64,000 bases of DNA, taken from assembly GCF_035084215.1 (NCBI RefSeq), contig NC_090348.1:34100001-34164000 (forward strand), given 5' to 3'. Position numbers and translations under genes: made by a program. The DNA is from Heptranchias perlo. Its lineage: Eukaryota. Positions 51,001 through 53,168 of the stretch are shown here, one piece after another (positions within the stretch are counted from its first letter, which is position 1; each line of letters starts with the position of its first letter). The notes under the pieces were generated by a model. It made no database searches. It saw only the letters and a program-made list of their open reading frames with translations, and was not told the origin of the DNA.

Positions 51001-53168
51001 GATTAACTCAAAATGGGTGCATTGTCGTTTCATCCTTTCAGTTTCAAAGCTTGCACCATTGTAAAGACAAATTAGACCACCCAAATTAATTTCTAAAGAA
51101 CAATTTTTCCATACTCTTGTGGAATAAAATTTAAAATCTGTCCTGTTGTTGCTGCGTATCACCTTTTTGTTGATTGAGATTCTCCTTCCCTCCTTACAGG
51201 TCCAACCAAAACCACAGACTCTTGTAATCCAAATCCTGATTGTGACACACATATTCCTATTATAAACACTAACTGCAGCAAGAACAAGTCATTAAAGTGG
51301 GGATGGGGTTTGAAATGTCTGCAAATCACTTAAAATGCAGTTTTACAATCCATATACTAAATATGTAACCAGCATTTAACATCTGTTCTGGGATTCCTTA
51401 TGTTATATCTTATTTTACATCATCAAAATAAACATGTAAACCATTTTGAGGGAAGTTAGAGGATTTGGGATCAAAGGGTTGCACAGAGGGGTGAAAATGT
51501 CAAAGGCAGCACCTTAAGCTAACATTGTATTTCCTGATACCAGGTGGCATGTGGAGGATAACCTCATTCAGATAATGAAAAATGCTACTTAAAATTAATC
51601 CATGCTTCACATAGGTGTGGTAAGAACAATTAGTGAAAGTGTAAATGTGAGTTAGACTATAAGGTGTTGTAAAAATTGTTTTTGTTGGAAAGGTCAATAC
51701 CTCCTATAGTGAACTTAGGAATTGAGACCAAAAAAAGCCCAATGTTCATCCAGTTCACTTTCTACCATCCTATTGTTAATTAGCCATGATGTGGAGATGC
51801 TGGTGATGGCATGGGGTGGACAATTGTAAGGAGTCGCACAACACCAGGTTATAGTCCAACAGCTTTATTTGAAATCACAAGCTTTCGGAGCTTTGCTCCT
51901 TCGCCTGACGAAGGAGCAAAGCTCCGAAAGCTTGTGATTCCAAATAAAGCTGTTGGACTATAACCTGGTGTTGTGCGACTCCTTACAATTGTTAATTAGC
52001 ACAGACTGACCTATTTATAATTACGTTGTGAGCCAACTGATATACTAAGTGGTAGTGAATATATAGGATTTTAAGAATGGCATCATCATTTGTAATGTTT
52101 AGACATAAGTGCTGTGGTATGATTTTCACTAAATTGCTTCAGTTATGTGAATTGAAGTTTTCTTTTTAAATAGATAAGGACTATAATGACCTTTTTGATG
52201 AATGTCATCTAGTTCCACTGAAGCAAAAGTTGCGAGGGCCACAATATTCACAGTCTGCCAATGAAGCCAGGGACTTTCTATCTGTTCTGCATCAGAGAGA
52301 GCAGAATATCCATACAGATAGTACAAGTGGACCTTCTCTGTGCTTAAATACTGAATTCTTTGAGTGTGAAGAGTCAAATGATGATGAGGAGGATGAGGAA
52401 GAAGCTGGTGCAATTTTCCCAAAAGGTGATTTGAATTCAATGTATAATGAAGATTCTCCTAATCTCACAGCACAGCCATCCACAGGAGAAAAAGCCTGTG
52501 ACACAGAGACACCACGCTGGGACATGTTTTTCAAACAGGAGCCAATTTTGATATCTGAAACCGATGAGTCGGAGATTGCCGGGGAGCAAGAAGTTGGTTC
52601 ACAATCACCCAACCTGTTCAGTGATTCTGAAGATGGAAATTCCACCCATTTTCCCTCACAAAGTTCATCCCAATCAACTCACGTATCAGAGCATGGCAGT
52701 CAGGGCAGCTTGTTTGACACTGAACAAAATCTCATTCACTTTCCAGAAAATAAAATGGGTTCTGTGAAATTGATGAACAGTAAGGATAAATCAGAATTAA
52801 ACATAGCTCCTGGAGTAGAGGAAAGCAACAACTGTGCACTTCAGAAAGGCAAAGAATTTCATTCAGATTATAATATCTCAAATGTTATGCATAATACTAC
52901 CTGCACATTGTTAAATAGCAATGTTAAGAATATGTGCTCTGAGCACTTAAGTAAAAATGATGCTCATTGCCATCAGGGCAAAAGAGAACAAAATTCAATT
53001 CCTGGTTTTAAATCTGACTCACAGATTTCCTCAGACTTTGAAATACCATCAACTCCAGACTCTGAATTGCCACAACCAGAGGAACTGAACATCCTGTACA
53101 ATAAATTAGCTGCTGGAGAAACTCTGAAAATCGAGACATATACACAATTAAGTGATAGCAAATCCTAG
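23918..53168 (+). CDS. DCLRE1C: Artemis nuclease (SNM1C, metallo-beta-lactamase/beta-CASP), complete 14-exon CDS, 2157 nt / 718 aa
   Basis: All exons are GT-AG and in frame (109,52,85,60,56,102,73,141,102,137,55,89,101,995 nt). Motifs: SHCHKDH, AGHCPGS, YTGDFR, YLDTT, SFHSS; zinc site H..HAC..C; SQ-rich tail. Confidence 0.97.
25045..25676 (-). mobile_element. Old CR1 3' fragment, interrupted by a SINE and resuming at about 26061-26140
   Basis: Similar to the other - strand CR1 copies (GGCAGAGAATTCCAAATTCTAACCACTCTCTGTGTAAAG). Confidence 0.6.
25677..26060 (+). mobile_element. tRNA-type SINE whose 3' tail matches the LINE at 1-2503
   Basis: Head GGTAATGTAGTGGTTATG; core TTCACTAATGTCCTT..GGAAGGGAATCTGCC; tail AGGGCAACTAGGAATGGGCAGTAAATG..GCCAGC. 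Confidence 0.7.
27396..27447 (+). CDS. DCLRE1C: Artemis exon 2
   Basis: TTTTTGCAG|; [17 protein letters not shown]; |GTAGT. Confidence 0.96.
28180..28553 (+). mobile_element. 3' end fragment of the same LINE family as 1-2503
   Basis: CACTGCAGCAACTCGCCAAGGCTTCTTC.. to the A-tail aligns by eye with about 2110-2503. Confidence 0.8.
29286..30270 (-). mobile_element. CR1 LINE 3' fragment
   Basis: ORFs 29941-30225 ([14 protein letters not shown]), 29466-29741 ([10 protein letters not shown]), 29303-29494; (ATTCTATG) tail. Confidence 0.88.
30305..30752 (-). mobile_element. Deu-domain tRNA-SINE, full length, with (TTTC)n tail
   Basis: Minus strand: CCGTGGCTCAGTG (A-box-like), GGATTCAAGTCCC (B-box-like), GATCCCATGGCACTATTTC, TGAAAGGTGTTATATAAATGCAAGTCTTTCTTTC. 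Confidence 0.8.
30989..31073 (+). CDS. DCLRE1C: Artemis exon 3
   Basis: TTACAG|; [28 protein letters not shown]; |GTAAGT. Confidence 0.96.
31513..31855 (-). mobile_element. CR1 3' end fragment
   Basis: TAAGAACATAAGAAATAGGAG.. is the reverse complement of the CR1 tail. Confidence 0.85.
32360..32419 (+). CDS. DCLRE1C: Artemis exon 4
   Basis: TTTTGCAG|; [20 protein letters not shown]; |GTAGA. Confidence 0.96.
33020..33270 (-). mobile_element. Old SINE-like repeat (same family as + strand 30755-30890)
   Basis: Reverse complement CCTCATCACTATCCAGTAACCCC..GCTCAGCTACAATGTCCCC resembles CCTGATGCTATCTAGTGACTCC..GGCTGTGCTGTAATGCCC; A-rich end. Confidence 0.5.
33816..33871 (+). CDS. DCLRE1C: Artemis exon 5
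   Basis: AATAG|; [18 protein letters not shown]; |GTAGG. Confidence 0.96.
34786..34887 (+). CDS. DCLRE1C: Artemis exon 6
   Basis: TTGCAG|; [33 protein letters not shown]; |GTAAAA. Confidence 0.96.
35400..36135 (-). mobile_element. CR1 3' fragment
   Basis: ORFs 35996-36184 ([13 protein letters not shown]) and 35624-35815 ([12 protein letters not shown]). Confidence 0.85.
36640..36865 (+). mobile_element. L2 3' tail fragment
   Basis: Matches 11590-11830 by eye (..GGGATGTTTTTCTACATTGAAGGTGCTATA). Confidence 0.6.
37162..37234 (+). CDS. DCLRE1C: Artemis exon 7
   Basis: TTACAG|; [24 protein letters not shown]; |GTAAAT. Confidence 0.96.
37775..38829 (+). mobile_element. CR1 LINE 3' fragment
   Basis: [18 protein letters not shown] GGGGTGCCGCAAGGATCGGTG; ORF 37893-38249; CR1 tail at 38800-38829. 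Confidence 0.9.
39785..39925 (+). CDS. DCLRE1C: Artemis exon 8
   Basis: CCTCAG|; [47 protein letters not shown]; |GTAGG. Confidence 0.96.
40433..40534 (+). CDS. DCLRE1C: Artemis exon 9
   Basis: CTTCAG|; [34 protein letters not shown]; |GTACT. Confidence 0.96.
40617..41204 (+). repeat. About 100-bp direct repeat (40617-40724 and 41104-41204) flanking Artemis exon 10
   Basis: TTGTAGTGTGTATG(G/A)TACTGCATTGTC..TTTAAAGTAATATTCCAGATTTCTTTT occurs twice with few differences. Confidence 0.9.
40760..40896 (+). CDS. DCLRE1C: Artemis exon 10
   Basis: ATAAAG|; [45 protein letters not shown]; |GTAAGA. Confidence 0.95.
42378..42805 (+). mobile_element. Deu-domain tRNA-SINE
   Basis: TCAGAAGGTTGTGGG..GAGGGAGTGCTGCA..TGAAAGGCTCTGTATAAATGTAATTTCTTTC. 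Confidence 0.75.
42925..43255 (-). mobile_element. CR1 3' end fragment
   Basis: ORF 43027-43239 ([27 protein letters not shown]); ATAGAATCATAGAA tail. Confidence 0.85.
43875..44112. mobile_element. CpG-rich terminal fragment of a Harbinger-like non-autonomous element
   Basis: Abrupt GC/CpG-rich block ending in TAAAATGACGCCC, a GGG-start TIR-like end comparable to 8716 and 12474. Confidence 0.55.
44274..44810 (+). repeat. About 140-bp local duplication (44274-44414 and 44668-44810) including a CR1 truncation junction
   Basis: ACTCCAGATCATAACAACTCGCTG..GTCAAAGGGGTGGAATTTAAGTCCCAG(G/A)AATAATAG occurs twice. Confidence 0.9.
45105..45390 (-). mobile_element. L2 3' fragment
   Basis: CAACAACAA tail end, and GGGAATTCCAGA..AAAGGCTCTGCCATCAATG resembling the reverse complement of 11590-11660. 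Confidence 0.55.
46888..47278 (-). mobile_element. CR1 3' end fragment
   Basis: CATAAGAACATAAGAAACAGGAGCAGGAGTAGG tail; ORF 47026-47208. Confidence 0.88.
47364..47418 (+). CDS. DCLRE1C: Artemis exon 11
   Basis: TTTCAG|; [18 protein letters not shown]; |GTAAAG. Confidence 0.96.
47434..47458. repeat. (TTA)n microsatellite just after the exon 11 donor
   Basis: TTATTATTATTATTATTATTATTAT read directly. Confidence 0.9.
48001..48089 (+). CDS. DCLRE1C: Artemis exon 12
   Basis: CTCAG|; [29 protein letters not shown]; |GTAAGT. Confidence 0.96.
48497..48597 (+). CDS. DCLRE1C: Artemis exon 13
   Basis: ATTTAG|; [39 protein letters not shown]. Confidence 0.93.
48970..50468 (-). mobile_element. CR1 LINE, about 1.5-kb 5'-truncated copy in DCLRE1C intron 13
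   Basis: ORFs 50353-50616 ([13 protein letters not shown]), 49362-49544 ([13 protein letters not shown]), 49046-49297; tail near 48970. Confidence 0.9.
51785..51992. mobile_element. Penelope-like element terminal insertion forming an 84-bp-arm palindrome, with TSD-like direct repeat
   Basis: Arms 51820-51903 and 51909-51992 are reverse complements (1 mismatch), loop CCTGA. ATTGTTAATTAGC occurs at 51772-51784 and 51988-52000. Confidence 0.8.
51901..51937 (+). ncRNA. Minimal type I hammerhead ribozyme motif (Penelope-associated)
   Basis: TCGC-CTGACGA-A-GGAGC-AAA-GCTCC-GAAA-GC-T-T-GTGA: CUGANGA and GAAA core, 5-bp stem II, self-complementary AGCU stem III, stem I TCGC/GTGA. Confidence 0.65.
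52174..53168 (+). CDS. DCLRE1C: Artemis exon 14 (C-terminal regulatory tail)
   Basis: TTTTTAAATAG|; [19 protein letters not shown] continues in frame into ORF 52230-53168 ([50 protein letters not shown]); stop TAG. Confidence 0.94.

Follow-up and report, generated by a model that had tools for sequence, protein, structure and literature searches.

The stretch of DNA analyzed here (the window) comprises 64,000 nucleotides of Heptranchias perlo contig NC_090348.1 (positions 34,100,001 to 34,164,000 of assembly GCF_035084215.1), and all coordinates are given within it. The window contains the Artemis gene (DCLRE1C), of which intron 13 carries a 203-bp palindromic insert; judged by its sequence, this insert is a stub of an abundant, endonuclease-bearing Penelope-like element (PLE), a retrotransposon. 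The 14 coding segments of Artemis mapped to the + strand, and the frame of the last exon matched a protein carrying the name Heptranchias perlo artemis, with 96% of the query aligned at 100% identity; a Pfam search with this exon gave no match. The joint between exon 13 and the acceptor at 52173/52174 appeared in contigs from each of the two RNA-like runs examined (2/2), which places the insert within intron 13 (48598 to 52173, + strand), ahead of the last coding exon (52174 to 53168, + strand). All 12 runs consisted of contigs, and the RNA-like label was guessed for 8 of them. The insert lies in sense orientation approximately 180 nt upstream of the acceptor, a position given in the original prediction, which was made from the letters of the window alone, and borne out by the protein match and the RNA-like contigs. 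The named isoform X2 has a second acceptor, at 52212/52213, 39 nt into exon 14; the RNA-like contigs use 52174.

The palindrome is formed by two 84-nt arms (51820 to 51903 and 51909 to 51992) that are 99% complementary and separated by a 5-nt spacer, with one A-C mismatch at 51872/51940. The RNA fold of the palindrome had a predicted energy of -161.1 kcal/mol (z = -23.5), and 0 of 200 shuffled sequences were equally stable. A 13-mer direct repeat, ATTGTTAATTAGC, flanks the insert as a target-site duplication (51772 to 51784 and 51988 to 52000). The arms, the single mismatch, the 5-nt loop, and the flanking repeat had all been predicted and were confirmed. The element itself spans 51785 to 51987 (203 bp), and its element-derived arms are 79 bp long; the terminal 5 bp of the right arm (51988 to 51992) are target DNA, which pairs with the left arm because this copy carries ACAAT where most copies carry ACAAA. 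Absent from the prediction was the diagnostic feature of the insert, an unpaired 40-nt tail (51785 to 51824, - strand) that precedes the left arm. This tail is an AC-rich 5' leader extending to a start codon (CAT at 51785 to 51787 on the + strand), and in two longer copies (L161 and L167) it runs into the start of the open reading frame (ORF). The last 4 nt of the left duplication also equal the antisense ORF start, a microhomology.

The left arm (51825 to 51903, - strand) is an inverted copy of the element's pseudo-long terminal repeat (pLTR), cut within a hammerhead core and without CUGANGA. The right arm (51904 to 51987, + strand) is a sense pLTR copy that lacks the tail, as do right arms of other family copies, and stops at the family's inner end. 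In the family alignment, the two arms meet in a head-to-head junction with approximately 4 to 5 nt of microhomology (51899 to 51908). Base 51903 is G in the window copy and A in the parent, and the A form was found in L005, L079, L123, and L172. Counted from the tail end, the right arm reaches approximately 126 nt and the left arm approximately 116 nt, which fits the family pattern described below. One mismatch in 84 nt, CpGs intact in both arms, and approximately 4 to 6 differences per 200 nt from its subfamily place the window copy among the younger copies; the predicted recent origin therefore holds insofar as the copy is fairly young, but it is not brand new. The mismatched site is polymorphic between subfamilies (16/130 alleles), so the mismatch may reflect two templates rather than a later mutation. 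A 33-nt fragment of the same pLTR, with 88% identity, was found at 6719 to 6751.

A minimal type I hammerhead motif, for which activity is predicted only, was recognized from its sequence at 51901 to 51937 on the + strand, where 51905 to 51937 read CUGACGA-A-GGAGC/GCUCC-GAAA-GC-U-U-GUGA; the - strand lacks CUGANGA. Stem I (51901 to 51904 with 51934 to 51937) contains one G.U pair and is followed by the core (51905 to 51911), an extra A (51912), stem II (51913 to 51917 with 51921 to 51925), GAAA (51926 to 51929), and a palindromic AGCU (51929 to 51932), with the predicted cut after U51933. The predicted assignment to this class, including the palindromic AGCU stem III, agreed with the published description in core, extra nucleotide, and helices. 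Fetched family loci totaling 657 kb contained 148 such motifs (reversed control, 0), and AGCU-U was present in 143 of the 148. The fifth pair of stem II occurred as C-G, G-C, and A-U and was mismatched in more than one-quarter of the motifs (27 G.G and 11 A.C). At E ≤ 10, Rfam searches gave 15 matches with an 801-nt query and 3 with a 63-nt query, none of them to a hammerhead family. The covariance-model check named in the original prediction was thus negative, although such a check carries little weight, since a monomeric helix III is lacking in the minimal motif.

Folding predictions indicated that the motif would be occluded at this locus. In the pre-mRNA, the long hairpin (-165.7 kcal/mol) was predicted to win over the hammerhead fold (-121.9 kcal/mol) by approximately 44 kcal/mol, with a predicted stem II probability of approximately 3e-16; competition between the two folds had been anticipated in the original prediction. 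The isolated 38-mer was predicted to be able to form stems I and II at -10.2 kcal/mol (near its optimum of -11.0 kcal/mol), and in the nascent transcript the hairpin was predicted to be favored already when the motif is complete. The left arm would be transcribed first in Artemis pre-mRNA and would capture the emerging hammerhead by base pairing, which is predicted to leave the ribozyme inert there. Editing of the hairpin by ADAR and extrusion of a DNA cruciform are plausible. In one subfamily (long tailed arms of L044, L055, L056, and L058), the antisense strand carries a perfect 5' splice site, CAG/GTGAGT, spanning the hammerhead core and stem I; the left arm of the window copy ends before this site.

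The insert belongs to a large family. A genome search gave 1,762 candidates, the best 40 of which were 90 to 97% identical, the locus itself excepted, and one 48-mer had 2,193 exact matches (reversed control, 0). A 68-nt piece used as a DNA query returned no match, likely because very common words are skipped. Copies encountered in arbitrary stretches were 85 to 97% identical to a reference copy. Long copies continue through a 3' untranslated region (UTR) into an ORF encoding reverse transcriptase (RT; PF00078, E = 3.5e-10 and 9.4e-10), and translations of L044, L103, and L167 contained a CxxxxCxxC linker. A GIY-YIG/CCHH-type region was discerned by eye in translations of parent copies, whereas a Pfam search with the endonuclease half of the ORF found neither GIY-YIG nor another endonuclease family, and a PDB search with the RT piece found no match. 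Every parent copy seen was broken or partial. A CX2-5CxxC linker between RT and endonuclease has been described as a mark of the Neptune and Nematis clades (PMC8557442), and by this linker the parent is provisionally assigned to the Neptune/Nematis type.

In L161 and L167, the order is hammerhead, tail, and start codon, and L167 comprises an inverted tail-less arm of 388 nt, a partial tandem of 1,351 nt, a full unit, and the tail. From this layout, the window insert consists of the leader of the element copied twice, head to head. The proposed Penelope origin was accordingly upheld by the RT, the linker, the GIY-YIG-type region, the partial tandem, the inverted arm, the tail, and the duplication. 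Two other copies (L179 and L191) have an ORF junction, with an inverted partner starting inside the ORF, and carry large inverted ORF duplications. The subfamily nearest the window copy (L032, L042, and L057) has an extra 3' UTR segment of approximately 75 nt, located approximately 370 to 480 nt from the tail end; absent in other subfamilies, it was possibly captured from another repeat.

Family architecture was examined in the first 100 listed of the 2,193 exact 48-mer copies, all on one contig and selected for an intact tail, not for a junction. An inverted tail-less arm was present in 84 of the 100 copies. Exact duplications of at least 9 bp flanked 76 of these 84 and measured 11 to 15 bp in 68 of the 76 (mode, 12 bp); duplications were richer in AT than the flanks (69% versus 57%). 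Inner ends fell at 34 to 40 nt in 61 of 63 scored copies and outer ends around the start codon, with microhomology at both outer junctions averaging 1.6 nt (chance, approximately 0.8 nt). Arm lengths ranged from approximately 49 nt to more than 1,800 nt, and junctions differed from copy to copy. In 28 of the 84 copies, the tail-less arm exceeded the tailed one by more than 10 nt; the reverse held in 18, and 38 had arms within 10 nt of each other. Simple self-copying of the tailed arm is insufficient to give the first of these groups. Alleles at position 49 were discordant between arms in 6 of 80 copies (40.5 expected under random pairing), indicating that both arms came from one source. Arm lengths were also coupled, with 60 of the 84 copies short in both arms, 19 long in both, and 5 mixed, which would be expected if priming could take place on the 5' leader or, alternatively, on the 3' pLTR.

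The positions at which arms ended were strongly clustered. Nearly half of the arm ends (88/184) lay at the 5' boundary of the hammerhead, 112 to 133 nt away from the tail end (9.1 times background, P ~ 1e-36), while ends around the hammerhead cut site, at 86 to 97 nt, occurred at the background rate (9/184). The peak at the former position and its absence at the latter suggest that the templates were likely uncleaved RNA. The peak had a sharp ceiling, with 45 ends at 123 to 127 nt and 6 at 128 to 132 nt. Of 22 long-arm copies, 14 had a CA initiator at 126/127 with TATATA exactly 30 nt above it, and in 18 the spacing was 28 to 31 nt; a distance of approximately 30 nt between TATA and initiator is canonical. 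The end peak shifted by 1 nt with the initiator of the subfamily (1 versus 7 and 10 versus 4; P = 0.012, post hoc). Of the 14 non-C arm starts at +1, 8 were preceded by a G that could derive from an RNA cap; the signal is weak (P = 0.058), since the other arm could have supplied 3 of these G residues and 3 of the 14 copies extend further upstream. No paper listed in the literature searches reported, by its title or abstract, an arm-end ceiling or twin priming by PLEs; supplementary figures may hold such a report.

These observations are probably best accounted for by a stub that was primed twice on uncleaved RNA, with its arms joined head to head by microhomology. The element's protein would cut both target strands 12 to 13 bp apart, leaving 3' overhangs; two cDNAs, one per cut end, would be primed at two leader start sites approximately 38 nt apart; both would run to or near the 5' end of uncleaved RNA, with the ceiling marking the transcription start; and they would then be joined head to head through microhomology. 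Twin priming in L1 likewise involves two target-primed cDNAs, a microhomology junction, and one duplication. There, non-overlapping parts are inverted, whereas primings only approximately 38 nt apart in the shark family would give a palindrome with a tail as the product. More tentatively, and with slightly less than even confidence, the stubs may record the integration step of PLEs. A dimeric RT-endonuclease would make a 12- to 13-nt staggered cut and prime two cDNAs simultaneously in the leader of a capped, uncleaved RNA starting 5 to 6 nt above the hammerhead; both would run off, like strong-stop DNA, and the host would join them. The hammerhead would then be a decapping switch at the mRNA start, taking RNAs out of the pool of templates, and no antisense template would be needed for inverted pLTRs to arise.

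Several points weigh against this account of double priming. The sample consisted solely of copies from one contig that have the tail and a perfect 48-mer, and the choice of the 112- to 133-nt range and of the subfamily shift followed inspection of the data. Arms that include at least 8 nt of ORF start were expected to be short, but 7 of 27 were long, as were 26 of 100 overall; with at least 10 nt of ORF start, 1 of 11 was long, a small number. This leader-templating test covered 30 of 81 matches, 2 of which overlap the first sample, and 3 of which were set aside as ORF-junction copies. The 5' ends of these three copies lay at 100, 105, and 224 nt, none at the ceiling. Finally, of 35 junctions outside the peak, 9 were symmetric to within 6 nt, versus 1.9 expected by permutation, which suggests fold-back or tip processing in some copies.

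The symmetric junctions are what would be seen if the second arm were copied from a folded cDNA or an antisense template and hairpin opening or central deletion set the junction, and the arms do share subfamily alleles. Self-priming on an antisense template has also been put forward in a publication on head-to-head PLE palindromes (PMC3846280). It is nevertheless unlikely as the general route for this family. Only one arm carries the tail, yet the arm lacking it is often the longer one; 10 loci have one arm ending at 119 to 129 nt and the other at 100 nt or less; microhomology is equal at both outer ends; and positions 49, 50, and 108 are discordant between arms in 6 to 10 loci, compared with approximately 1 to 3 at most other non-CpG sites. 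Double priming might instead be combined with stalling of RT at a folded or protein-bound hammerhead rather than with arrival at the RNA end. The coincidence of the end peak with the 5' edge of the motif would fit a stall, as would a leader-templating test that did not support run-off. Stalling, however, would be expected at first contact with the structure (approximately 88 to 100 nt), where no peak occurs, and the ceiling lies past stem I, at the initiator that follows TATA by 30 nt, and shifts together with this initiator between subfamilies, so this variant appears rather improbable. Still harder to sustain is a self-propagating, non-autonomous palindrome of 200 bp resembling a retrozyme, a short interspersed element, or a miniature inverted-repeat transposable element (MITE). 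Many copies measure 195 to 225 bp and both arms end in the peak in 31 of 84, but arm lengths vary from approximately 49 to more than 1,800 nt, junctions are private, tandem hammerhead units are lacking, one end is an unpaired tail, and arms extend into the RT-GIY-YIG ORF.

Other classifications of the insert were rejected. MITEs have terminal inverted repeats at both ends, a uniform length, and a DNA-transposon origin; the insert family has an unpaired tail at one end, widely varying arm lengths, and arms that enter the RT ORF. A microRNA (miRNA) precursor (mir-1597 and others) was rejected as a generic hairpin match scoring 53 bits where Rfam requires 93. All Rfam miRNA and small nucleolar RNA matches to the 801-nt and 63-nt queries fell below gathering scores.

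Family density was estimated from arbitrary 10-kb stretches, of which 40 were requested and 34 existed (340 kb). These contained 18 family copies, 8 of them twin palindromes, extrapolating to approximately 76,000 twin palindromes per genome (95% range, 33,000 to 150,000). By chance, a twin palindrome would occur in approximately 50% of 29-kb genes and in 8% of introns of this size. The special link to Artemis that the original prediction had drawn consequently finds no support, since this density makes the site unremarkable. Co-option as an Artemis regulator (ribozyme, editing substrate, or cruciform) is thus scarcely credible, its sense orientation and proximity to the last acceptor and the intron-derived RNA-like contigs that extend into the element being set against chance occurrence, a hammerhead predicted to be occluded, and the intact exon 13-14 joint. 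The placement in Artemis is likely a coincidence and the insertion likely a near-neutral passenger.

At position 51393, 390 nt upstream of the insert, A>G was present in contigs of both RNA-like runs (X5 and X6) and was not seen in two DNA runs from the same sample; this could be editing or a heterozygous site. A 206-nt contig of X6 covers 51654 to 51859 (unique flank plus left arm) with 7 differences, which may reflect editing, or the contig may be a chimera that includes other copies of the family. No empty-site joint was found among the 15 of 62 joints that were listed.

The architecture and the ribozyme are already known, and the locus itself is ordinary. The family is of modest importance in that its TATA/initiator ceiling provides a concrete, testable prediction on the PLE mechanism; how PLEs build tandem and inverted structures has been stated to be open (PMC8557442). 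If the density estimate holds, long, perfect hairpins number in the tens of thousands in the introns of this shark and may be a large endogenous source of double-stranded RNA.

The published PLE layout consists of an inverted, 5'-truncated arm, a one-sided tail, and a duplication (PMC3846280; PMC8557442). As described for Pen2a_Av of Adineta (PMC3846280) and in the general scheme (PMC8557442), features shared with the shark family are a head-to-head, inverted, 5'-truncated copy, a one-sided tail of 30 to 40 nt, a duplication, and a pLTR that overlaps the ORF start and contains TATA and an initiator (PMC3846280). Transcription in Drosophila has been reported to begin inside the upstream pLTR (PMC2377424). 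Duplications are 9 to 10 bp in Adineta, compared with 11 to 15 bp in the shark family. Unlike Pen2a_Av, the shark insert has arms of only 79 to 119 nt and no ORF, and its family contains tens of thousands of stubs with ends piled up at one place.

The Anolis carolinensis Poseidon element PAc was reported in vitro to cut and extend both strands from two internal start sites flanking the tail, using uncleaved RNA (PMC11167929). AT-rich targets are common to PAc and the shark family, and the inner and outer ends of the shark copies also fit two internal RT start sites at an AC-rich tail, cleavage and extension of both strands, and a template of uncleaved hammerhead RNA; the shark element differs in having the CxxxxCxxC linker and in a hammerhead and tail wholly upstream of the AUG. 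The available text of the PAc report gives no explanation of inverted arms.

Metazoan PLE hammerheads have been described as minimal type I motifs with an extra nucleotide, a short helix I, and a palindromic helix III, with pairs noted 100 to 700 bp apart on opposite strands (PMC4209133). The window motif shares with these the core, the extra nucleotide after A9, G10.1-C11.1, a 4-bp helix I, and palindromic 15.2-16.2. It differs in a helix II of 5 bp instead of 7 to 8 bp, in its position inside a 79-bp antisense duplex, and in having the full core on one strand only. Non-LTR retrozymes (bioRxiv 10.64898/2026.07.22.740005) are likewise derived from PLE pLTRs, non-coding, and equipped with a type I hammerhead. 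Assignment to them was rejected, since a retrozyme is a tandem array of two or more units, every one with its own hammerhead, whereas the window insert is an inverted pair with one core.

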